Below, in pieces: positions 6,970-17,613 of a DNA stretch of 64,000 nucleotides (its first letter is position 1; each line of letters opens with the position of its first letter). The DNA is from Ignavibacteria bacterium. Its GTDB lineage: Bacteria > Bacteroidota > Ignavibacteria > UBA10030 > UBA6906. The stretch covers positions 39,200 to 103,199 of the forward strand of contig PSMW01000009.1 of the NCBI GenBank assembly GCA_040290295.1, written 5' to 3'. The notes under the pieces were generated by a model. The model searched no databases, was not told the DNA's origin, and worked only from the letters and a program-made list of their open reading frames with translations. A program made the translations under genes and the position numbers.

Positions 6970-7896
6970 TTAAAACGTAATTGCTAACGAAACAGTGTGT
7001 CCGCTTCCCAATCCCTCCGCGAGAGGGATGAAGCCATAATCGAGATTGAACATGTCGTGCTTGATGCCTACGCCTGCGCTCAAGCCTCTCGCATGTGTTC
7101 CTGCTTGATAGCCCGCTCGCGCCGCCACGGTTTCATCGAACATCAACTCTCCTCCGAAGTTGAAAGATGATTTCTTTTCGGGGAAGACGTACACGATATC
7201 TGCGGAAACCATCAGTTCCGAAGTCATGCTCTCGATGGGGAATGAGTAGCCACTCCCGGCGCGTAGCAGTGCAGGTAACGTGATCTTCTGTGTGCGCATC
7301 GCCTTCATCGAGCCGATGTTGGCGAGCATGATACCGAACTGCAGATGGTCGATCGGCGGTGTGTAGTGTGCACCGATGTCGAAGGCGAAGCCATTGGCGT
7401 CGTCCACAAAGATCTTCTCGAACAAAAACTTACCGCTGACACCAATGCACACGTGATCGGAGAAACGTTGCGCATAGGTTGCCGAGACGGCAAAGTCGTG
7501 AGAGGTAAACGTATCTTCGGGTCTGCCGGGCCTCGTCCGCACCTCGATGTCGGATACCGACGCGGCGTTGACCGAGACACCGAGAGCACGATGCTCATCG
7601 AGTTGCACACTCACGCCGAGAAACTGAGCGCGCACGTCTTGAATCCATTCGCGATGCATTAGAAGAAATTGCGTCGAGCCGCTGTTGTCACTCAGCACGC
7701 CTGCCGGATTGTAAAACGTGGCTGCAGCACCGCTTGCTTGTGCCGTCATGGCGTCGCCCATGGCGAGACCTCTGCCCGAAACGCCGAACTTGAGAAACGC
7801 TAATCCGGCTTTACCGGCCTGGGCATAAGTCGGCAGCGGTCGCAACGGCACCGTGACTGCAATGAAGGAGATGAAGAGAATAAGCGAGCGCTTCAT
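6970..7896 (-). CDS. outer-membrane beta-barrel, PorV/PorQ-like (FadL superfamily)
   Basis: Signal peptide. N-terminal GRGLAMGDAMTAQASGAAATFYNPAG motif as in FadL/PorV/PorQ barrels. Alternating beta pattern and C-terminal Phe. Confidence 0.5.
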   Translation of the reverse strand: MKRSLILFISFIAVTVPLRPLPTYAQAGKAGLAFLKFGVSGRGLAMGDAMTAQASGAAATFYNPAGVLSDNSGSTQFLLMHREWIQDVRAQFLGVSVQLDEHRALGVSVNAASVSDIEVRTRPGRPEDTFTSHDFAVSATYAQRFSDHVCIGVSGKFLFEKIFVDDANGFAFDIGAHYTPPIDHLQFGIMLANIGSMKAMRTQKITLPALLRAGSGYSFPIESMTSELMVSADIVYVFPEKKSSFNFGGELMFDETVAARAGYQAGTHARGLSAGVGIKHDMFNLDYGFIPLAEGLGSGHTVSLAITF

Positions 7897-7903
7897 GTGC
7901 TTC

Positions 7904-8935
7904 TCAAAAAATAACGGAAATCGAAATCATGTGCATGGCTGAAGAAGCGAACGGTTCGATGACGAACGCATAGTTCAGAGCAGGCGTCCACGTATCGAAG
8001 TCTCGTCGAGCAGAAAAGCCGAACGTGGGACGAACGCCGTTGCCGCGCGTTTTCACGTCGATCCGGTCGATGCCGGCGCGGAGCACCAATTCGGGTATCA
8101 CGATCACTTCGGCACCCATCTTCACGACAACCGTGGATTGATCGCTGAACTCGACATCGACGGCGACAGTACCGATCGTATCGGGCAGTTGGTATGCCGC
8201 GCCGACGGTGTACAGGCGCGGAAAACGATCGGTGCTTGTGGCCGCTGCTTCGGTGTAGATCGCTTTGGTGTCCCAACTGTACTTCGAGCTGAAATCTCTT
8301 GCCGTCGCGCCCAACGTGAGCCGCTCGGAGATAGGGTAGAGCACGCCGAGATCGAATCCGAACGTCGATGAATTGACGTCGGTGTAGAGGTGATGGTAGA
8401 GATACTTGATGGTGATGCCGATGGCGAGTGAATTCTTGAGACTCGTTCCGAAGCTCAACATCGCCTGATTCTCAGAGGTTTGGAGCAGACCCGTCGGTTC
8501 GCCGTCTCTGTCTCGTCCATCGATCTTTGTGACACCTCCATTGATGATGCCGATAGCGATTCCCGCTCGAGGCTTCGCGGCGCTGGTGCCGGCGTTTTCA
8601 TTCTGCGACGGTGTGGGTCCCAACGGTTGCATGAAGTTCAAAAAATTCAGGCGCCTATCCATTGCAAGAATGCCGAACGATGCCGAGATGTTCCGGTACT
8701 GCGCAAATGGTAGTGTTGCCGGGTTGTAATAGCCAACGGCGTCGCCGGTGGTCACGGCAGTCAACGCATTGCCCATACCCATGCCGCGTGCACCGAAACC
8801 CATTCGGCTGTACGCGCCTGCGCGACCACCCAGTTGTGCCGATGAATGTACAGGGTGCATCACGAGCATGCCGAGCATTACTCCCTGCAAAAGTATGTTC
8901 ATAGAGAGGATTCGCGGAAGCGGGAGTCGGGTCAT
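7904..8935 (-). CDS. outer-membrane beta-barrel, PorV/PorQ-like (second copy)
   Basis: ARGMGMGNALTAVTTGDAVGYYNPATL motif and C-terminal ...SVIF. ATG 8935 forms an ATGA overlap with the upstream gene's stop. The track ORF starts at 8959. Confidence 0.5.
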   Translation of the reverse strand: MTRLPLPRILSMNILLQGVMLGMLVMHPVHSSAQLGGRAGAYSRMGFGARGMGMGNALTAVTTGDAVGYYNPATLPFAQYRNISASFGILAMDRRLNFLNFMQPLGPTPSQNENAGTSAAKPRAGIAIGIINGGVTKIDGRDRDGEPTGLLQTSENQAMLSFGTSLKNSLAIGITIKYLYHHLYTDVNSSTFGFDLGVLYPISERLTLGATARDFSSKYSWDTKAIYTEAAATSTDRFPRLYTVGAAYQLPDTIGTVAVDVEFSDQSTVVVKMGAEVIVIPELVLRAGIDRIDVKTRGNGVRPTFGFSARRDFDTWTPALNYAFVIEPFASSAMHMISISVIF

Positions 8936-10485
8936 TGCAACACCATCACCTTTCCCCACGATGGTTCTGCTCCAGCGATGGTGACCCGGTAGAAGTACAC
9001 GCCATTGGCGACTTGTCGGTCGGCATCATCGCGGCCATCCCAAATCTCATCATGGTCGTTGGTGCCGGAACGCTGCGCATCCTTGATCACTGTCCGTACG
9101 CGGTTCATGCCGAAGTCGAAGACCTCGATCGTTACCGATGCCGAGCGCCCGCCGGTGCTGTAGTGAAAGCGAACGGGTTCTTGCTTCGGTGAAAACGGAT
9201 TGGGATAAGCGTATGTTGTGCCGGTTGTGCCGACCGGGCGAAATGCGCGCAGCACGTGCCATGTTTCGCCGAAGGCATGTACAGCATTGTCGATCGTTTT
9301 TGCCAGCCCTTCTGAACCGCCGCAATAGACCGTATCAGCCACAACATCGACCGAAAAGAATTGTCGCGAGGTGAACCGATTCCCCGACGCGCGGTCGATG
9401 ATCGTTCCGGATTGCGTCCACGTCTCGCCGCCATCGGCCGAGCGGAAGATACCATCGTCGGTTGCAACGTACACGATCGAATCTTTGAATGCGAAATCGT
9501 ATGACTTAACGCCGTGGAGGAAGTTTCGCCAAATGCGGCCATCGTCATCGGTGAAGCTGATGCCGAATTGCTCGTTCGGGTCATCGGCCCTCCAGTTTGT
9601 ACACCAGATCCGCTGGTGCGAGCCTCTCTGCTGGCCGTCGATGGCGATGACCCAGTTGCCGAGGATGTGCGCAACTTGGTTTTGCGCGGAGAATTTGGTC
9701 CAACTCACTCCACCATCGGTCGATCGGTTGATGCCGCCTGCGGTACCACACCAGATCGTGGAATCGTTCTGCACGTACACAGCAAAGGCAAGAAAATTGT
9801 TATTCCGGCGGGGATCGACGAGATAACCGCTCAGTGGATCATCGGGCGCGATGCTGTTACGCGTGTCGGAGGGCAAAACGGTTCGTTGCCACGACGCACC
9901 GCGGTTCGTCGATTTGCGCAGGCCGCTCGCCCAGCTTGCAATCCATACCACACTGTCGGTGAATGCGAGGTCGAACGTGACATTTTGTTCGGGAACGATG
10001 ATGGGAAGGAACTTGATCCGGTTACTTCCGTACATCACGATGCTGTCATCCGGTGCATCGAGCGGCTGTGGGACATGTGTCCACGTTCTGCCCGCGTCGA
10101 GCGAGTACGTGTATCCCGATCCTGTTTGTACTGTGCGATTGTCTTCACCTTCCACCCGCTTGTTGAATCCTGTGGCGGTCCAAATGACGCTGCCGCGAAC
10201 AGCAAGGGAGAAGATGCCATCGTTGACGAACGCGGGAACAGAACGAAAACTTTCCCACGTTCCGCCGCCATCGGTCGTACGTGCAAGCCCTTTGCTCGTG
10301 CCGACGTAAACGGTATTTCCATCGCTTGCAAGGTGTGAGATCGAATTATTGGGAAGCGTGGATGAAGCCGATTGTTGTATTCCTTCGAGCTTCGGTGTAC
10401 TCAAGCGAAGGCTCTGCCCGGCAGCAAAAGGCGCGATACCGATGCGCAGGATGATGAGTGAAAGGAGAAAGCGGATCGTCATCAT
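8932..10485 (-). CDS. BNR/Asp-box repeat beta-propeller protein with T9SS-type (FlgD-Ig-like) C-terminal domain
   Basis: Repeated SxDxGxTW boxes (TTDGGGTWES, SLDAGRTWTH, STDGGVSWTK, SADGGETWTQ). C-terminus YAYPNPFSP...VANGVYFYRV...KVMVLQ resembles T9SS sorting domains. Confidence 0.7.
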   Translation of the reverse strand: MMTIRFLLSLIILRIGIAPFAAGQSLRLSTPKLEGIQQSASSTLPNNSISHLASDGNTVYVGTSKGLARTTDGGGTWESFRSVPAFVNDGIFSLAVRGSVIWTATGFNKRVEGEDNRTVQTGSGYTYSLDAGRTWTHVPQPLDAPDDSIVMYGSNRIKFLPIIVPEQNVTFDLAFTDSVVWIASWASGLRKSTNRGASWQRTVLPSDTRNSIAPDDPLSGYLVDPRRNNNFLAFAVYVQNDSTIWCGTAGGINRSTDGGVSWTKFSAQNQVAHILGNWVIAIDGQQRGSHQRIWCTNWRADDPNEQFGISFTDDDGRIWRNFLHGVKSYDFAFKDSIVYVATDDGIFRSADGGETWTQSGTIIDRASGNRFTSRQFFSVDVVADTVYCGGSEGLAKTIDNAVHAFGETWHVLRAFRPVGTTGTTYAYPNPFSPKQEPVRFHYSTGGRSASVTIEVFDFGMNRVRTVIKDAQRSGTNDHDEIWDGRDDADRQVANGVYFYRVTIAGAEPSWGKVMVLQ

Positions 10486-11297
10486 CGAATTGTGAGGTAA
10501 TGGAGAACAGTCCGACTGGTGTCGTTGAACGAGTCTTGAGCTTGGAATGCGAAACGGAATGTGCGTCGCACGTTAGGTGCATCGACCAACTTCACGATGA
10601 TGGAGTAAATGCCGTCGCCGGCTCGTTCATCGCCGCTGGGTGAGCTTCTGTCGGCACCGCCGTCGTCACGCAAAAAGAACTTTCGATTGGGGTCGCTGGA
10701 GTCGAGACTTCGGAAAAAGACCTCGCGAATATCACCGATGCCGTCGGAATCGGCGGCGGTGATGTTCATTCCGATCAGCAGCGAGTCGCCCGGCGGGAGC
10801 ACCAGCGTGTCGGGGGCGTTCAGACGCGAGAGTGTGGGGGGTGAATTCCGCCTGCCGAGTTTCAAGGCACGCTCGAGCGCATTACTGACCGCGCCGGCAC
10901 TGTTCGTGGCTGCGAAACGGACTCTGTATCGACCGACGAGCGATCGCTCTACGCTGAATTGTATCCGCCCTGTGTACACACTGTCGCGAGCCGACTGATC
11001 GGGTAGGATGCCGTCGTCGCGCAGTGTCGCTTCGGCAACGACCGTCGTGCCCGTCGGACGGAGAACCGTCGCGGTGACGGTCGGCAGGCCTTCGGCAGAA
11101 AATGCTTTGACACTTACGAGAGTGTTGATGGTATAGCGACCGTTTTCCGGCGTGAGACTGTCCACATAGATGCTGTCCGGCGTAATGAGTGGAGAACGCA
11201 CAACCGGGACGTCGGTGCTGACATCGACAGTTCCGAATTTGGATTGCTCACACCCGACTGCCAAAAGCAGAAGGCTACAGATCGTTAAGCGACGCAT
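10482..11297 (-). CDS. hypothetical lipoprotein (two Ig-like regions), first gene of a 4-gene operon
   Basis: MRRLTICSLLLLAVGC lipobox. No family recognised. ATGA-type overlap with the downstream BNR gene. Confidence 0.6.
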   Translation of the reverse strand: MRRLTICSLLLLAVGCEQSKFGTVDVSTDVPVVRSPLITPDSIYVDSLTPENGRYTINTLVSVKAFSAEGLPTVTATVLRPTGTTVVAEATLRDDGILPDQSARDSVYTGRIQFSVERSLVGRYRVRFAATNSAGAVSNALERALKLGRRNSPPTLSRLNAPDTLVLPPGDSLLIGMNITAADSDGIGDIREVFFRSLDSSDPNRKFFLRDDGGADRSSPSGDERAGDGIYSIIVKLVDAPNVRRTFRFAFQAQDSFNDTSRTVLHYLTIR

Positions 11298-11519: not shown

Positions 11520-12503
11520 TCACTGAAGTGGTATCGTCATCGGGACGAGCGAGAAGCATCCGATGAAGATAATTGCGCACAGCCAGCCTATCAGCATGCG
11601 CCGATTGTCGAGAGGCGTGTCGTCTTGCAATGGTGATCTACGGAAATTTACCGATCGCATCATGAACACCAAGATCACCGCCCACATAAACCATCCGAAC
11701 CATCCGTACTGAAAGTTCACTCCAACTTCAGGCAAAAGCCCGGCGAGCCCGAGCACCACGAGCAGTACAAGCGATACTTGTGCGATGAGGTGATAACGAT
11801 TGCCGAACATCGCAAACGAAATATGCCCGCCATCGAGCTGACCGATAGGAATCAAGTTCATTGCCGTCACCAACATGCCGAACCAGCCCACACACAACAA
11901 TGGATAATGGTAGATTTCGTTCATCGGCGGAATGAAGGCATCGCTCGGTGCGAAGAGTTTTTCGAACAGCGAGAGGAACAGCGTTCCGCCAAACCGCAGA
12001 CCTCCTTCGGGAAGGGATGGCATCAACGCGTACTCAGGGTGGATCTCGTAGAGATATTCTTTCGTCGGTAACGTTGCATAACCAACAGCAAGAATAATCG
12101 CCGTGACGACAAATCCTGCCAGAGGTCCGGCCGCGCCAATATCGAACAACACCCTGCGTGAAGGGATTGCAGATCGAATACGAATCACTGCGCCCATCGT
12201 TCCAAACTGGTTCAGAAAAAGAAGAGGGGGGAACGGTATGTAGAAAGGTAGCGTCGTTTCGACACCATGATAACGTGCTGCGAAGTAGTGCCCGAACTCA
12301 TGAGCACTGAGCATCGCAAGAATGAGAAACGAATAGGTGAGTCCGGAAGAAAAGTTGGATAACTCAAAAGGGTCTTTCACCAACCACGCTACGCCGGCCA
12401 GTGTTGTTGTAAAGAACGTGAGAAGGAAGAGAGATCCGTGTACGAGATAGCGCTTCCACTGTATCCCTACCTCCGGCTGGACAACGACAAAATCCTGATC
12501 CAT
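11520..12503 (-). CDS. M50 family site-2 (intramembrane) metalloprotease, no PDZ domain
   Basis: HEFGH zinc motif within a TM helix, second S2P signature NLIPIGQLDGG, and multiple TM helices. Confidence 0.85.
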   Translation of the reverse strand: MDQDFVVVQPEVGIQWKRYLVHGSLFLLTFFTTTLAGVAWLVKDPFELSNFSSGLTYSFLILAMLSAHEFGHYFAARYHGVETTLPFYIPFPPLLFLNQFGTMGAVIRIRSAIPSRRVLFDIGAAGPLAGFVVTAIILAVGYATLPTKEYLYEIHPEYALMPSLPEGGLRFGGTLFLSLFEKLFAPSDAFIPPMNEIYHYPLLCVGWFGMLVTAMNLIPIGQLDGGHISFAMFGNRYHLIAQVSLVLLVVLGLAGLLPEVGVNFQYGWFGWFMWAVILVFMMRSVNFRRSPLQDDTPLDNRRMLIGWLCAIIFIGCFSLVPMTIPLQ

Positions 12504-12583
12504 TATTGCACGATAGAAGAACTCGGGTTAGTTGTAACTGCACATCCAATATATGGAAAATGCCGGAAGGTTTTCGGGCAGGA

Positions 12584-12626
12584 GAAAAAACAGTTGCGCC
12601 GCCCGACCTCGACGATCGGGCAGCGC
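12584..12626 (-). terminator. rho-independent terminator after the repeat-peptide gene
   Basis: In mRNA sense: an 11-bp GC-rich stem (12616-12626 pairs with 12596-12606, one G-U), a 9-nt loop, then AACUGUUUUUU (T6 = 12585-12590). Confidence 0.6.
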
Positions 12627-12647
12627 GTTCACACAGATGCAATCAAG

Positions 12648-12857
12648 CTATGGCCGAGGTGAATCGGGCATCACTGCAACACCGCTCTTCGGGCGCGGCG
12701 AGTCCGGCATTACCGCTACCCCGCTTTTAGGCCGAGGCGAATCTGGCATAACGGCCACCCCGCTCTTTGATGCCAGGCTTGAGATGGCGATGTTCGTCCC
12801 TCCAACGAGCGTCAACGCGACAACCAGACCGCGCAAACGTTTTGCTGTGGTTGACAT
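12648..12857 (-). CDS. secreted mini-protein: Sec-type signal + 3 x KSGVAVMPDSPRP
   Basis: 69-aa ORF. GGGGGA lies 6 nt upstream of the ATG, with an in-frame TAA 45 nt upstream. Signal has n-h-c structure (MSTTAKRLRG-LVVALTLVGGTNIAI-SSLA). Three identical 13-aa units are encoded by diverged 39-nt units. A terminator follows directly. Confidence 0.6.
   Translation of the reverse strand: MSTTAKRLRGLVVALTLVGGTNIAISSLASKSGVAVMPDSPRPKSGVAVMPDSPRPKSGVAVMPDSPRP
12651..12767. repeat. 3 x 39-nt imperfect tandem repeat (units 12651-12689, 12690-12728, 12729-12767)
   Basis: Hand alignment: units differ at 7, 9 and 11 of 39 positions. All differences fall on one codon phase and are synonymous in the minus frame. 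Confidence 0.9.
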
Positions 12858-13223
12858 AGGTGTATCCCCCTAACTGTTGATGTGTTGGTTGATTGAATTA
12901 TCGGCAGATTCCATTGGTCTCTGTACCAATGACTCTGCCATGATGAGTATAGGTTTGCTCTGTTCCAAAGGCTGGATGGAGAGGATAAATCGATCAGATC
13001 GTTCCTTTTCCCTGCGCCTCCCCAAACATGATGGGTGCGGCATGAATCGTTTCCCCTTTTCAGATTGGAATTAGACTGGCATCCCCCTGAAACCTGACGT
13101 GCGTGAAAATATAGATAACCCGTTCACCGAAGTCAATACGGCAAACTACGTAGTGACACCTATGTGGATTGCACGTCTTTCGATGAAGAAATACGTACAT
13201 GACGTAAGAAATAGCGTTTTCTC

Positions 13224-13252
13224 TTGACTTGCTTATTGGCGTTCGATATATT
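13224..13252 (+). promoter_or_regulatory. candidate sigma-70-type promoter TTGACT-N17-TATATT
   Basis: TTGACT (13224-13229), 17-nt spacer, TATATT (13247-13252), about 27 nt upstream of ATG 13279. The same architecture occurs at 60132-60160. Confidence 0.3.
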
Positions 13253-13278
13253 TGAAGCGAACTTCCTTCTCGCAACGT

Positions 13279-14427
13279 ATGACACGAGCCAAAAGTATCT
13301 TGGTTATCTGGATAGCTGCGCTGCTTGCATTTCTTACTTCATTCCAGCTACCACATGTTCCCATCACGGCTGCAGGTTTTATCAGTTACTGTCTGCAGTT
13401 TCTCCTGTTCATCATAAGCCTGTATTTGGTTCGTAACGAACCTGTTCGAAAGACTCGGTTTGTGTTTAGTAACTTTACGGCATTTTTTGGGATTTCAATC
13501 CTTTTCCATCTTTATCAATTTCTCGGTGTACTGATTTTTCCCCAGCATCAACTGGCCCGGCATTATTTCTTCCAATACATCTCGCTCGGATTGTACTTTT
13601 TCCTGTTTGCCTTTGCGATCGGTTATATTACCATCGATCTGTTGTTTTGGGATTTCAAGACTCTTTACAAGTATTGGATCACCCTTGCTATCGTCGGAGG
13701 CTTTTTTGGGTTCTACTATCACCCGTATTTCTCCAATCCTCTCTACCTCTACACAACGCAAGAGATATCGGAATGGAAAGAATTGGATCGAGCGAGCAAA
13801 GAATACCGACAGCGCTTCGGGTCGGAGCCTACTGAAGAAGAGTTGGTAAACTACTTCCGCACAGCAACCGTCTCGGCTCCTTTGCTCGAACGGTTGATGC
13901 CGGAAGAACGCGAGACGCGGGTGCGTGAACTGTTTCCGTACCTTGCAGGTTCGAGTTACATGATTCTTTTGCTGAAGCCTTTGTACCTCAACACGATCTA
14001 CATGTGCGTGCTTAGCTTCGCGTTGATCATCTTGTACTTTGGCTATCTGTACAAAAAAGACCCTCCTCAGGGTGCATACATCGAGAAGATGATGTTCTTC
14101 TTTTTATTGTTCTGTACGTTGGAGATATTTCACGCTTGGAGTTTTATCAAGACCGTCGAGTGGCGCGCGTTCTCACAGTACGTTATTATCGGTCAATACT
14201 TATCGGCCGGGGTTCTTCTCGGCATCGCGACGCTTTTCGGTTTGCGTCTGCGATTCATCACCTCTGCGTACGGCGAGTTCTATGAGCAAGAGATCGAAGA
14301 GCATCCAGCGGGCATCACGCGGTGGCGCGACGCGTTTGACAATTTGCTGATCAAATACTTCTTCGACCGAAACGAATTTGTCGGAAGGTTTTTTGTTCTA
14401 CCGAAGGCTCAAGATAAACAACACTAA
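13279..14427 (+). CDS. hypothetical polytopic membrane protein (two TM bundles around a charged soluble loop)
   Basis: Long ORF with about 8-10 hydrophobic helices. No family recognised. Visibly AT-richer with T-ending codons compared with neighbours. The track start (TTG 13252) overlaps the putative -10, so ATG 13279 is preferred. Confidence 0.7.
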   Translation: MTRAKSILVIWIAALLAFLTSFQLPHVPITAAGFISYCLQFLLFIISLYLVRNEPVRKTRFVFSNFTAFFGISILFHLYQFLGVLIFPQHQLARHYFFQYISLGLYFFLFAFAIGYITIDLLFWDFKTLYKYWITLAIVGGFFGFYYHPYFSNPLYLYTTQEISEWKELDRASKEYRQRFGSEPTEEELVNYFRTATVSAPLLERLMPEERETRVRELFPYLAGSSYMILLLKPLYLNTIYMCVLSFALIILYFGYLYKKDPPQGAYIEKMMFFFLLFCTLEIFHAWSFIKTVEWRAFSQYVIIGQYLSAGVLLGIATLFGLRLRFITSAYGEFYEQEIEEHPAGITRWRDAFDNLLIKYFFDRNEFVGRFFVLPKAQDKQH

Positions 14428-14508
14428 GTTTCACGGAACTCGGTCTCCACATCCCTTGCACTGCGAGAGCGGAGTTCCTACAAACTATCATCAGTGAGGA
14501 AAGGTTTT

Positions 14509-15546
14509 ATGGAAACAAACACGACTTTTGGCGAAAAGAAAGCCGGGGGTGCTTTCGCATATCCAATCATCGGAAAGAGCAAAGCGACAGAGCAGTTGAT
14601 TCGCTCGATCCAGAGACTTGCGAAAACCCGACGCGATGTCCTCATCGTCGGTGAAGCCGGCGTCGGGAAGGGGGCCGTTGCCAAGAACATTTATCATCTC
14701 GGCAAGGCGGAAGCGAAGAACGGTGATCAAGACATGCCGTTCTCGTCTGTCAATCTCTCGGTCGTTGACGATCGTGAGTTGGAGGCGATGCTCTTCGGTT
14801 TCGACCGCGGGGTAAAAGGTCTCCCGTACACATCGAAGCGTGGATTGTTCGAGCAAGCCAACGGCGGCACCGTTCTGATCGAAGAGATCGAAGAAGCAAG
14901 CTTCCGCAACCAGATGAAGATTCTCAACTTCATCAACGAACGGAAGACGCGCCGCATCGGTAGCGAGATGCGCGAAAGCGTTGACATTCGCCTTATTATC
15001 ACGATGAAAGAAGATCCGGCGCAGTTAGTGGAAAAGCGCAAACTGCTCGAAGACTTGTACGCAAAGGTGTTGGAATTCGAAAAGATCGAAATCCCTCCGC
15101 TACGCCAGCGACCCGAGGATATTCCTCTTTTGGTGAAGCACTTCACGAGCGAGATCTGCAAGGAACTTGGTCTCGGCGATCTTGTCATCGACATCAATGC
15201 GATCGACGTCCTCGTTCGTCAGCCATGGAAGGAAAATATCCGTGAGCTGAAAGCCGTCGTCGATAAGTCGGTGCTTTTCTCCAACGAGGGACGTTTCTCC
15301 TTACCGTCCGAATTGGTTGACGAGAAGACCGAGGTTGTGAAGATGATCAACAACATCATGGCGGGACAGGAATTCGTACTCGACAAGTCGCTCGACGTCA
15401 TCGAGAAAGGCATCATCGAGCGGTCGCTGGATCGGTTCGGCTTCAACCAGTCCAAAGCGGCGGCATTCCTCGGCATGACCGAGCAAACCTTTCGTTACAA
15501 GCTGAAGCGCTTGGGCATCACGAGTGCCCGTTCGAGGAATACATAA
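14509..15546 (+). CDS. stand-alone sigma-54-activator-like AAA+ regulator with Fis-type HTH; GAFTGA loop not conserved
   Basis: Walker A GEAGVGKG, Walker B region VLIEEIEE, sensor-II-like ENIRELK, and C-terminal HTH (QSKAAAFLGMTEQTFRYKLKRLGI). No receiver or sensor domain. GAGGAAAGG SD precedes ATG 14509. Confidence 0.75.
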   Translation: METNTTFGEKKAGGAFAYPIIGKSKATEQLIRSIQRLAKTRRDVLIVGEAGVGKGAVAKNIYHLGKAEAKNGDQDMPFSSVNLSVVDDRELEAMLFGFDRGVKGLPYTSKRGLFEQANGGTVLIEEIEEASFRNQMKILNFINERKTRRIGSEMRESVDIRLIITMKEDPAQLVEKRKLLEDLYAKVLEFEKIEIPPLRQRPEDIPLLVKHFTSEICKELGLGDLVIDINAIDVLVRQPWKENIRELKAVVDKSVLFSNEGRFSLPSELVDEKTEVVKMINNIMAGQEFVLDKSLDVIEKGIIERSLDRFGFNQSKAAAFLGMTEQTFRYKLKRLGITSARSRNT

Positions 15547-15568: not shown

Positions 15569-15611
15569 ACGAGGATGTAAGGCGATGGCTTTGCATCCTC
15601 GTGTGTTTTTA
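15569..15611 (+). terminator. hairpin + T-run between convergent genes
   Basis: ACGAGGATG (15569-15577) pairs with CATCCTCGT (15594-15602), followed by GTGTTTTTA. Confidence 0.5.
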
Positions 15612-16496
15612 GATCTTCCCGAGAATTGCGAGGAGTATTTCCCAAAGAATAAGGATGATGATGATGAGTTCCAACGCTGCCGATCGTTGTGCTTCCAATC
15701 GGGCGAGAACAAACGTGCTGAAGCGGGAGATGATCGATACTTTCTGTTGTATGACTTTGATGCGGTCTTCGAGATTGAACTCAGTCTTAAGCGCTCTGTA
15801 CAACTGTTCGATCTTGGCTCCTCCGTCCCAAACGATGTCCGGATCGTCGAAGATTGCGACATCGTATGCCAACTCGTGTTCCACAGATAAGGCAAACCCG
15901 ACATTCTTCGTTGCTTCACGTCCACGCCGGGGAATCCACCCTTTGGTTGCAAGTTGTACGACGGTCGGCTCGAATTGCGCCAGCGCATCGGTAACGAGCT
16001 TTTCGTAATACTCGAGAGAGACCGACCTACTCAGCACAATGCCAACGATGAGGGCAATATCGCGACTCACATCTTTAATGTACCATACGTCCTTCCCGGC
16101 GGGCTTCTGTTGTCGCGGAACGAGCGAGAGCACAAACTCATCCTCGCTGATATATTTGTTCTCGCGAAACGCACACTGCTTGAGTTGTGCCATGACCTGC
16201 TCGATCTCGTTCGGAGGAACATTGAAAAAGACGACCGAGCCGTAATCGAACACATTGACCAGCTTGTTCCGATCGAACTGCACCAGCAACGGTTTGGCAT
16301 TCAACACCTTCCCACCTAAGGTGTTTTCCAATTTCTCCCGAGCCTTTCTGAGGTCATATGCCGAAGCATAGTCGAACGCCTTCACGGACACCGTCTCGTG
16401 TTCAAGCGGATGGATGTCGGTTTCTTCGGGCTGCATTCGTGTGCTCGTGTTATGAAATTCCCCTGCAAACCAACGGCTGTCTCGGCATGGAAGCAC
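15609..16496 (-). CDS. RMD1/YagE-like (DUF155) family protein with C-terminal TM helix
   Basis: Recalled family resemblance (core ...VFDYGSVVFFNV...) plus a single C-terminal TM segment (LELIIIILILWEILLAILG). The start may instead be at 16436. Confidence 0.5.
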   Translation of the reverse strand: MLPCRDSRWFAGEFHNTSTRMQPEETDIHPLEHETVSVKAFDYASAYDLRKAREKLENTLGGKVLNAKPLLVQFDRNKLVNVFDYGSVVFFNVPPNEIEQVMAQLKQCAFRENKYISEDEFVLSLVPRQQKPAGKDVWYIKDVSRDIALIVGIVLSRSVSLEYYEKLVTDALAQFEPTVVQLATKGWIPRRGREATKNVGFALSVEHELAYDVAIFDDPDIVWDGGAKIEQLYRALKTEFNLEDRIKVIQQKVSIISRFSTFVLARLEAQRSAALELIIIILILWEILLAILGKI

Positions 16497-16509: not shown

Positions 16510-17613
16510 TTACCGCAGTCGTCGATCTTTCCACCTCACGTCTCTGCTGAAGAGTACTAGTGGTGGAAACAATAAAACATATGCAATGTAGTACACCTCG
16601 AAAGGCACCAAATAGAGAAAGAGCCGTCGTGCCTTGAATGCCGATAGAGTCGGGGCCACCAGCAGCGCGTCCACCGCACTCTTGATGGCGAACGCTGCCA
16701 GAAACGGTGCAAAGTCTCCAGCAGCGAGAGTCACAACTGAGAGGGCTTTGAAGGTGAACCCAAAGGCGAACAAACCAATGCTTTTCCAATCCATCCCCGC
16801 TCCTCCGCTGAACCAACGCTTTTTCTGATTGAACAACTCCCTCCACGTTTCACAGGGAAGACTGAACACCAACGTTTGCGGATCGATGGGAAGGCGTGCA
16901 ACGTATCCCGCTCTTCTCGTCACAGCATGGAACAGCGCGTAGTCCTCGGTAACGCTGAACGGGATGCTCCGATATCCGCCAACGGCATCATAGGCGGAGC
17001 GACGCACGGAGAGGTTGTTGCCGACAGCCGTGACGGGAAAGCGCAGCCGTATCGTACCTGCAGCGATGGAGAACAACACGAACCAGTCGAGCGCTTGAAT
17101 GGCTTCGAACATCGTTCGTGAACGTAACGCCGTGAAGCCCGCAACCAATCCTACCGATGGGTGGTTGTAGTACTTGACTGTTTCCTCTACCCAGCCACGT
17201 TGCACCACACAATCTGCATCTGTGAAGAGGAGAATATCGCCTGTCGAGCGTTCAATGCCTTGCGTGATGGCGTTCGCCTTTCCGTGAAGCCTGCCGCTCG
17301 GATCCTCTGTTGCATTCAGCAGCCGAATGAACGAGCACCGGCGCGCAAACTCACTGATGATCTCCTCTGTCCGGTCCGTCGAACGATCGTTGACGACCAC
17401 CACTTCTAAACGTTCCGTTGGATAGGTGAGGTGCGAGATAGATTCGAGGCACGCTCGAATATTCTTTTCTTCATTCCGCGCAGCGATAATGATGGAAACA
17501 CTCGGACGGTAGGTTGGATCGAAAGAATATGTCGCCTTTCGGACGCCGATGGCAAAAAGCAAGATTTGGATTGCATAGATCGCAGCGAAGAGAAACAGAA
17601 GATCGATAAGCAT
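16510..17613 (-). CDS. glycosyltransferase family 2, membrane-anchored
   Basis: VSIIIAARNEEKNI and FTDADCV (DxD-like) motifs of GT2, with C-terminal TM helices. Confidence 0.8.
   Translation of the reverse strand: MLIDLLFLFAAIYAIQILLFAIGVRKATYSFDPTYRPSVSIIIAARNEEKNIRACLESISHLTYPTERLEVVVVNDRSTDRTEEIISEFARRCSFIRLLNATEDPSGRLHGKANAITQGIERSTGDILLFTDADCVVQRGWVEETVKYYNHPSVGLVAGFTALRSRTMFEAIQALDWFVLFSIAAGTIRLRFPVTAVGNNLSVRRSAYDAVGGYRSIPFSVTEDYALFHAVTRRAGYVARLPIDPQTLVFSLPCETWRELFNQKKRWFSGGAGMDWKSIGLFAFGFTFKALSVVTLAAGDFAPFLAAFAIKSAVDALLVAPTLSAFKARRLFLYLVPFEVYYIAYVLLFPPLVLFSRDVRWKDRRLR

Follow-up and report, generated by a model that had tools for sequence, protein, structure and literature searches.

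Peptide signals that are linear and unmodified, and polyprotein precursors in the style of prohormones, are textbook subjects for eukaryotes and Gram-positive bacteria. The precursors of the yeast alpha-factor and fission-yeast P-factor, and the fungal Kex2-processed repeat proteins (KEPs), have a secretion signal followed by tandem short peptides punctuated by basic residues (PMC7329392, PMC6342294). The tandemly duplicated Phr propeptides of the RRNPPA systems of Bacillota and phages are exported by Sec, are 50–120 amino acids (aa) long, contain 1–4 identical or near-identical copies of a short peptide, and are matured by a signal peptidase and then by extracellular proteases (PMC11343458). 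Here, we analyse a mini-gene at positions 12648..12857 of the minus strand in a 64,000-nucleotide (nt) stretch of DNA from an Ignavibacteria bacterium (GenBank assembly GCA_040290295.1, contig PSMW01000009.1), which is referred to as the window. The mini-gene encodes a Sec-signal-like leader and three identical proline-rich units, and we class it as a multi-copy peptide precursor of the prohormone-like kind, for which there is no known example in this bacterial phylum or gene context. A full-text literature search found no description of the mini-gene family, and no linear-peptide or prohormone-style system described for Bacteroidota-type diderms.

The mini-gene can be divided into the following parts:

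12648..12857, minus strand: mini-gene coding sequence, 69 aa including the leader and three identical units, with the stop codon within the span

12771..12857, minus strand: leader, residues 1–29, MSTTAKRLRGLVVALTLVGGTNIAISSLA, Sec-signal-like, with the family signature K/R-R-x-R ... T-N-x-A-I-S

12729..12767, minus strand: unit 1, Lys followed by SGVAVMPDSPRP, from translation

12690..12728, minus strand: unit 2, Lys followed by SGVAVMPDSPRP, from translation

12651..12689, minus strand: unit 3, Lys followed by SGVAVMPDSPRP, from translation, with the stop codon directly after it

12865..12870, minus strand: GGGGGA motif resembling a Shine-Dalgarno (SD) sequence, 7 nt 5' of the ATG

12585..12626, minus strand: intrinsic terminator, a 13-bp G+C-rich hairpin and a T6 run

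Translation of the minus strand gives MSTTAKRLRGLVVALTLVGGTNIAISSLAS, then KSGVAVMPDSPRP three times, and a stop codon. An earlier note on this DNA had described the three 39-nt units, and a recount of their pairwise differences gave the identical values of 9, 7, and 11. As the note had claimed, every difference is at codon position 3 and is synonymous in the minus frame, which was confirmed by translation. The variable columns (11 out of 39) share one codon phase throughout, the chance of which is approximately (1/3)^11 = 6e-6. Tandem Repeats Finder assigns the units a period of 39, 3.0 copies, and 75% matches. The GGGGGA motif is present as reported, at a spacing to the ATG of 7 nt and not 6 nt, and the nearest in-frame stop codon is located 15 nt 5' of the ATG (TAG 12872..12870), instead of the 45 nt given previously. 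The terminator was confirmed, with a hairpin at 12626..12596, which begins 22 nt past the stop codon and is followed by AACTG and the T6 run. An SD-like GGAG or GGGGG motif occurs at the equivalent place in most homologous loci, and a strong hairpin with a T-run follows the stop codon in most of them, although the stem sequences differ among the loci. The mini-gene's own SD and terminator in most loci indicate a short monocistronic transcript, and we take the minus-strand open reading frame (ORF) to be a genuine, monocistronic gene.

As read from the sequence, the leader has the features of a Sec-type signal, with an n-region charge of +3, a hydrophobic stretch of approximately 15 residues, and S-L-A before the putative cleavage site. 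The AlphaFold2 (AF2) model of the mini-protein contains a helix formed by residues 3–31, with predicted local distance difference test (pLDDT) values of 85–91, followed by an unstructured repeat tail with a pLDDT of ~50; the repeat region is thus predicted to be disordered. Lipoprotein and Tat readings were rejected, since the leader contains no lipobox and no twin-arginine motif.

Two further elements are located upstream of the mini-gene. A CCGATAA(C/T) motif ~45 nt 5' of the ATG (window ~12895..12905, minus strand) is followed by the A/C-rich leader sequence AACCAACA..., is kept in closer relatives (L001, L003, L006, L009, and L029), and may be a promoter or an element of the 5' untranslated region. 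A 57-aa ORF (12870..13043, minus strand) in the frame of the mini-gene terminates at the TAG that overlaps the mini-gene SD, and is probably non-coding, because the upstream regions of relatives are not conserved.

A protein search identified 51 homologues with E-values from 1e-38 to 3e-7 and lengths of 53–121 aa, which contain no Pfam domain and are unnamed or annotated as 'hypothetical'. The family comprises 70 distinct close relatives and ~80 more distant cluster representatives. All members come from Ignavibacteria/Bacteroidota metagenome genomes, and the loci are found in Ignavibacteriales/Ignavibacteriae and 'Bacteroidota' metagenome-assembled genomes (MAGs) from groundwater, wetland, or soil; a candidate homologue from Wenzhouxiangellaceae (L015) was rejected as a spurious low-complexity match. 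The earlier note had recognised no family for the unit, and searches with the mini-protein and its profile against Pfam, NCBIfam, PADLOC, and PDB sequences, as well as an Rfam scan of the mini-gene region, likewise produced no match.

The layout of a leader followed by a multi-copy core, which the note had recognised from the window, is family-wide. Members have a conserved Sec-like leader, ..KRFRSL..TNxAIS[YF]A, and 2–5 copies of a short proline-rich unit, and the core is hypervariable. The leader consensus of the close family is MSxTAKRFRSLVITVIAIAATNxAIS[YF]A. In the leader alignment (A1), M1, R7, and N22 are invariant, and K6, R9, T21, A24, I25, and S26 are at least 90% conserved. The leader is far more conserved than ordinary signal peptides.

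The note had proposed to check whether copy number varies among relatives while the unit is kept, and this is the case: the 70 close proteins contain two (7 proteins), three (13), four (48), or five copies (2). A single type of 12-mer is found in 54 of the 70. The residue between units is K in 153 instances and R in 30, apart from a single G and a longer spacer, KTNLVAAK. In 28 of the 70, the first unit directly adjoins the final Ala of the leader, and in 42 it trails a spacer of 1–16 residues, which always ends with K or R. All 70 proteins terminate with ...P[RK]P right at the last unit. The sole basic residue inside the unit precedes a proline, and a basic residue in this position resists trypsin-type cleavage. 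Within genes, free variation is limited to the linker codon (57 non-synonymous and 26 synonymous differences); therefore, the unit is best described as a 12-mer SGVxxxPDxPRP with a basic linker. The earlier note had taken the unit as a 13-mer, but in the close family a 12-mer with a K/R linker is the more likely functional unit.

Several individual arrays differ in the number or integrity of their units. Proteins P0039 and P0006 (three and four copies), and P0048 and P0021 (two and four copies), have identical leaders and units within each pair, and the differences in copy number are due either to population-level variation or to the collapse of repeats in short-read assembly. In L029/L030, a decayed first unit (KSDVANMPDSSQP), apparently a copy being lost from the array's edge, precedes three intact KSGVANIPDSPRP units. 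The mini-gene of L014 (7900..8300, MAG MFD05942.bin.1.2) is frameshifted, so that the leader runs into a stop codon and the units continue in other frames, whereas the neighbouring gene for a membrane protein with eight transmembrane (TM) helices is intact and encodes 376 aa. The broken copy is either a pseudogene or a homopolymer error of the long-read assembly.

Distant members were collected by a profile search of 1.84 billion cluster representatives, which produced 107 hits. Approximately 80 of these are small proteins that share the leader and have quite different repeated units, such as KAGIAILPDSPRP, KSTVPAYPDSPRP, KSGVPLVGGNMPRP, HAGISTTADPPKP, RSGDATKPSDTPRP, KTTNPNNPLYGSPRP, KSVLSQPKPPIP, and KVGTIRPWGPRP, the last with long spacers. 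Most distant units end with P-[RK]-P, and no other feature of the unit is as well conserved in the wider family. Sequence inspection of the wider family identified no invariant Ser, Thr, Cys, His, or Met, and for this reason the unit was not considered an O-glycosylation motif or a metal-binding site.

The evolution of the units was analysed in DNA gathered for 26 distinct arrays from reference MAGs and metagenomes, with differences counted in the 12 core codons. The codon differences within genes are 971 synonymous and 15 non-synonymous, which bears out the purifying selection on the unit that the note had proposed. At four-fold sites, units of the same gene have a divergence of 0.61 (758/1243), compared with 0.71 for units of different genes, whereas the residue differences per 12-mer are 0.098 within genes and 2.81 between genes. 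The same pattern extends to distant members: L038 has 46 synonymous and three non-synonymous differences, all three in the linker; L039 has 28 and none; and L041 has 52 and 10, the latter in the linker and at one A/S position. The unit sequence, near-identical within a gene, is hypervariable between lineages. The four-fold divergence of the window's own units is 0.85, obtained from 27 site comparisons, which are too few to separate it from the between-gene value. Synonymous over-dispersion caused by selection against DNA repeats was considered as a candidate and is unsupported, as the within-gene value of 0.61 is below the between-gene value of 0.71. Among the few within-gene non-synonymous differences is a change of Pro to Leu at position 8 of the unit, which recurs in unrelated arrays (L001 unit 3, ..MLDSPRP; L037 units 2–3, ..IILDAPRP).

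The earlier claim that the units did not arise by recent duplication holds for the window, but does not extend to all lineages. The divergence of units is low in L013, L018, and L020 (0.32–0.40), the arrays of L001 and L006 differ by 0.46 and 0.35 within and by 0.72 between arrays, and an unusual Ser codon family is common to whole arrays in L022/L031 and in L025. Homogenisation of DNA, or turnover of arrays, is thus visible in some lineages. However, same-position units of the sister arrays L022 and L031 differ by 0.43, compared with 0.74 and 0.69 within the arrays, which indicates positional orthology, the four units predating the split of the two arrays. Codon 6 is ATT/ATC/GTC/GTT in one of these arrays and ATT/ATC/ATC/ATT in the other, which implies two independent A/G changes in separate units, each of which kept its own third base. 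In L019, a lineage-specific Ser is encoded by TCG/AGT/AGC/TCG across the units. The L022/L031 and L019 cases are anecdotal, but suggest that identity of the units is selected for and does not merely result from conversion. Neither the units nor their homogenisation can be dated against the flanking DNA, because the four-fold divergence of the neighbouring M50 peptidase gene is near saturation even in the closest species pair (0.54–0.64).

Both hallmarks of polyubiquitin evolution were found, namely units that are identical as protein but synonymously diverged, and signs of homogenisation at the DNA level. Polyubiquitin (PMC10457151) similarly consists of head-to-tail units, is subject to purifying selection with occasional homogenisation, and is cut into monomers. 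Unlike the mini-gene unit, which is a disordered 12-mer and hypervariable between lineages, ubiquitin is a folded 76-aa domain that is invariant in eukaryotes.

The weakest point of the earlier note was the choice of strand, because an ORF on the opposite strand shares the wobble positions of the mini-gene:

12553..12873, plus strand: antisense ORF, 106 aa, an artefact of the shared wobble phase and not a gene

The units of the antisense ORF are near-identical, but not fully so, and consist of GRGESGITATPL with F/L/F, as had been described. Of the within-gene synonymous changes of the 26 arrays, 10 affect the first position alone, 11 combine the first and the third position, and four are triple changes. 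Units differ by switches between codon families (CGN/AGR for Arg, TTG/CTN for Leu, and TCN/AGY for Ser), which are synonymous in the minus frame only, and therefore the minus strand is the sense strand. The note had named conservation of the plus-frame ORF in relatives as the strongest evidence against its own reading; the antisense frame is broken by stop codons in 12 of 25 loci and accumulates 103 non-synonymous unit differences, compared with 15 in the sense frame. With both lines of codon evidence, we regard the strand as settled.

The mini-gene is a warning for annotation: with an antisense ORF longer than the gene itself (106 vs 69 aa), gene callers overlook it or place the gene on the wrong strand. 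In public gene calls, the mini-gene is uncalled in L035 (3184..4001), and an ORF on the opposite strand is called in L037 (3173..3502). The exact mini-protein of the window is missing from the protein collection, in which the neighbouring protein P0052 is present at 100% identity.

We favour, with modest confidence, the reading that the mini-protein is an exported polyprotein, which would be cut into identical lineage-specific peptides that serve as signals or effectors. The conserved leader would carry the protein over the inner membrane via Sec and would be cut off at the small-x-Ala site. What remains, a disordered tail of ~40 residues, would be a polyprotein of three 12-mers SGVAVMPDSPRP, each preceded by a single Lys, and cleavage at the unit boundaries by a putative envelope protease would yield several copies of one short proline-rich peptide. 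The tandem copies may raise the yield of peptide per transcript, as in polyubiquitin, yeast alpha-factor, the fungal Kex2-processed repeats, and Bacillus Phr. Selection within a lineage holds all copies identical, whereas between lineages the peptide is hypervariable and the leader conserved. The punctuation rule, variable copy number, disordered tail, and within-protein identity point to a polyprotein that is cut into peptide copies. Since no maturase of ribosomally synthesised, post-translationally modified peptides (RiPPs) is conserved nearby, an unmodified or lightly processed linear peptide is favoured. The note had offered a RiPP, pheromone, or propeptide precursor; an unmodified propeptide or a pheromone-like precursor fits better than a RiPP, which would have no conserved modifying enzyme nearby. 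The peptide would be the part that bears specificity, most likely as a lineage-specific signal and less likely as an effector of competition.

The alpha-factor, P-factor, and KEP precursors resemble the mini-gene family in their variable copy number, within-gene identity, and between-species divergence, and their multiple copies are read as an amplification of yield. They differ in that the mini-protein is bacterial and putatively exported by Sec, one K (153) or one R (30) separates its units where the fungal precursors have a dibasic KR with a spacer, and there is neither a Kex2 or Golgi pathway nor sequence homology. The Phr precursors are closer in being bacterial, small propeptides with a signal-like leader, which here is judged from sequence only, and tandem peptide copies. 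However, phr genes occur in monoderm Bacillota and adjoin a cytoplasmic TPR receptor (Rap and its relatives), whereas the host of the mini-gene is presumably diderm and no TPR receptor (Rap/Rgg/NprR/PlcR/PrgX/AimR) is conserved at the mini-gene loci. Furthermore, the units are 12–15 residues long, compared with 5–10 in Phr, and the fixed neighbours of the mini-gene encode an M50 peptidase, an 8-TM protein, and a sigma-54 activator. The family thus lacks the RRNPPA receptor, the dibasic sites and Kex2, the maturase, and the anti-sigma domain that define the described systems, and has no match in curated collections.

The mini-gene belongs to a conserved block of genes, in which it is accompanied by the following features:

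11520..12503, minus strand: peptidase of the M50 (site-2 protease) family, Pfam PF02163, E 5.5e-20

12547..12553, minus strand: TATATTG motif between the terminator and the start codon of the M50 gene

13252..14427, plus strand: membrane protein of ~380 aa with ~8 TM helices, divergent from the mini-gene

14494..15546, plus strand: sigma-54 activator (AAA+ and HTH_8; Pfam Sigma54_activat), co-directional with the 8-TM gene

16510..17613, minus strand: membrane GT2 glycosyltransferase, at the outer end of the conserved block, from Pfam matches of relatives and tblastn synteny

All 23 loci that extend 450 nt or more downstream have the M50 gene directly downstream of the mini-gene and on the same strand, and all 23 that extend 700 nt or more upstream have the 8-TM gene upstream and divergent, with the membrane protein down to 36% identity. 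The TATATTG motif precedes the M50 start in about a dozen loci, including L001, L006, L008, L010, L012, L016, L019, L028, and L029, and may be the M50 gene's own promoter element. The pairing of the mini-gene with the 8-TM gene persists at 34–40% identity of the membrane protein, where the repeat unit is unrelated, and in loci where the genes beyond M50 change (L035 and L036). Three further homologues of the 8-TM protein, 46–52% identical to that of the window, all have a mini-gene beside them.

The true start of the 8-TM protein, which has more than 520 homologues, is probably ATG 13279. Its sequence has no match in Pfam, NCBIfam, or PDB sequences, and PDB sequence searches with the M50 protein and the mini-protein (A1) also gave no match. 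The AF2 model of the 8-TM protein has a pLDDT of 85.8, and a Foldseek search of the PDB with it returned only non-significant 7-TM look-alikes (best E 0.09, TM-score 0.2–0.4). The protein contains a poorly conserved 74-residue loop domain (residues 153–226), which is predicted to be periplasmic by helix count, an invariant KDPPQGAY loop, predicted to be cytoplasmic, and a conserved C-terminal tail. The AAA+ domain of the sigma-54 activator starts at residue 25 and is not preceded by a sensor domain, which is a PspF-like layout. The activator is 79–92% identical across the loci that hold the whole gene, and no other gene of the block comes close to this conservation. Its PADLOC matches are confined to the AAA+HTH portion of RtcR/PspF-type models.

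A DUF155 (RMND1/Sif2-like) gene (15609..16496, minus strand) lies between the sigma-54 activator and GT2 genes in the window, and is not at that position in L001, L003, L016, and L035–L037. Beyond M50, the window contains a run of genes for envelope proteins and proteins of the type IX secretion system type (6970..11297, minus strand), including a choice-of-anchor-X protein and a BNR/Sortilin protein, the C-terminal domain of which is FlgD_ig/CHU_C-like. In relatives, the run continues with an outer-membrane protein beta-barrel, a PorV-like protein, and a thioredoxin. It is syntenic in close relatives, whereas L035 and L036 have a CHAT/TPR protein in its place.

On the basis of gene order only, no better candidates for leader or signal-peptide processing, sensing, and output are at hand than the M50 peptidase, the 8-TM protein, and the sigma-54 activator. 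That the peptide is a signal sensed by neighbouring envelope proteins is plausible, although promoter and co-variation tests are unsupportive. The more specific model, in which M50 acts on the leader, the 12–15-mer is sensed via the 8-TM protein and controls the sigma-54 activator, and the copies are driven to identity even by parallel mutations, is doubtful.

A number of observations weigh against the exported-precursor reading and its extension to the neighbouring genes. The residue between the units of distant members is sometimes N, H, M, D, or G, so the trypsin-like rule is not universal. We infer export, cleavage, and peptide release from sequence. A Sec-exported peptide of ~1.2 kDa would reach only the periplasm of the presumably diderm host unless it is carried further. 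The 12-mer contains one Asp and one Arg and thus has a net charge of ~0, unlike known proline-rich antimicrobial peptides. The same difference separates it from apidaecin-type multipeptide precursors of insects, which also contain tandem Pro-rich units with PRP motifs in one precursor, but are strongly cationic and eukaryotic. A candidate sigma-54 promoter upstream of the mini-gene, TGGCAG-N5-TTGG at 12925..12940, drew attention because of the activator gene nearby, but is conserved in no relative and was rejected; across the window, sigma-54-type promoter matches are at chance level (29 vs 31 expected). Co-variation of the peptide with the 8-TM loop (153–226) was not detected in 18 loci (partial Mantel r = -0.29, p = 0.96), in a test of low power with loop-domain distances near saturation. 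Finally, all loci come from one bacterial lineage, and the gene order could be inherited and not functional.

Some of the same features fit a tail that is never cut. The intact tail, periplasmic or anchored by the leader, would then be a multivalent ligand, the units of which, with their P-[RK]-P ends, dock to one partner domain, so that the protein gains avidity or serves as a scaffold. In favour of this reading are the proline-rich, disordered tail, the P[RK]P end as the best-conserved feature of the unit in the wider family, the membrane proteins encoded by neighbouring genes, and the linkers of distant members, some of which are not basic. However, the spacers of such linear-motif proteins drift, whereas in the mini-protein hypervariable positions are identical within a protein despite the near-saturated synonymous divergence. 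In addition, the arrangement of n units with n-1 linkers, the stop codon after the last unit, and the K/R-ended spacers have no obvious meaning in a scaffold. We therefore consider a multivalent ligand unlikely.

The mini-protein may alternatively be a substrate or regulator in a pathway of regulated intramembrane proteolysis. Its leader would be a type-II signal anchor, the repeat tail in the periplasm would be trimmed by a site-1 protease before M50 cuts the TM segment, and the cleavage would control the 8-TM protein and the sigma-54 activator; in a variant, M50 would mature the leader itself into a signal, as Eep does for enterococcal pheromones. S2P (site-2) proteases mature peptide pheromones from signal peptides (PMC10202637), and these Eep/RseP-matured pheromones resemble the mini-gene in having a small exported precursor tied to M50 and a constrained signal-peptide region. 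They differ in that their pheromone corresponds to the C-terminal portion of a lipoprotein signal peptide, whereas the selected part of the mini-protein is the tail, and in that the involvement of M50 at the mini-gene is deduced from adjacency only. The M50 gene directly downstream in 23/23 loci, the predicted N-in topology, the conserved helix-destabilising T-N inside the hydrophobic segment, and a leader conservation far above that of ordinary signal peptides are as this pathway would have them. Nevertheless, the cytoplasmic part is ~9 residues long and so contains no domain of the anti-sigma type, M50 has its own promoter-like element past a strong terminator, and the hydrophobic stretch of ~15 residues with the conserved small-x-Ala fits a cleaved signal peptide better than an anchor. 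As the strictly identical lineage-specific tail units are also left unexplained, we find the pathway and its variant, taken jointly, improbable.

Cyanobactin PatE-type and plesiocin-type graspetide precursors have a conserved leader and several hypervariable cores. The same holds for multi-core microviridin precursors (PMC5934393), and the mini-gene family, with its conserved leader and hypervariable multi-copy cores, displays this classic precursor pattern. The units might accordingly be modified before or after release, for instance glycosylated by the nearby GT2, which lies within the conserved block, or cyclised, and a gene for an M16 peptidase adjoins the block in some loci. However, by Pfam the conserved block (M50, a membrane protein without a Pfam match, Sigma54_activat, and GT2) contains no recognised maturase family, a radical-SAM gene occurs at the edge of L001 only, and the M16 gene is not present in the window's own sub-clade. 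Unlike in multi-core RiPPs, no modifiable residue is conserved, since the wider family lacks any invariant Ser, Thr, or Cys, and the leader is Sec-like, whereas most bacterial RiPP leaders are cytoplasmic recognition sequences. A RiPP precursor is thus quite improbable.

The last alternative, that the plus-strand ORF 12553..12873 is real or that the repeat is a non-coding DNA or RNA element, is effectively refuted by the antisense stop codons and non-synonymous differences of relatives, the Arg, Leu, and Ser codon-family switches, the lack of a match in the Rfam scan of the region, and the minus-strand SD, start codon, and terminator, even though an antisense ORF is called in the public assembly of L037, and the plus ORF is the longer one and shares the wobble phase, so that in this window alone it is nearly synonymous too.

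If the more specific model with M50, the 8-TM protein, and the sigma-54 activator is true, the mini-gene family would represent a peptide-pheromone system of a kind undescribed in diderm Bacteroidota/Ignavibacteria. The family provides a clean, testable case, in which the predicted products are of a simplicity that allows synthesis, and the adjacent genes encode the candidate partners (M50, the 8-TM protein, and the sigma-54 activator). The combination of within-gene identity and between-lineage hypervariability makes the arrays an unusually sharp natural experiment on the co-evolution of coding repeats.

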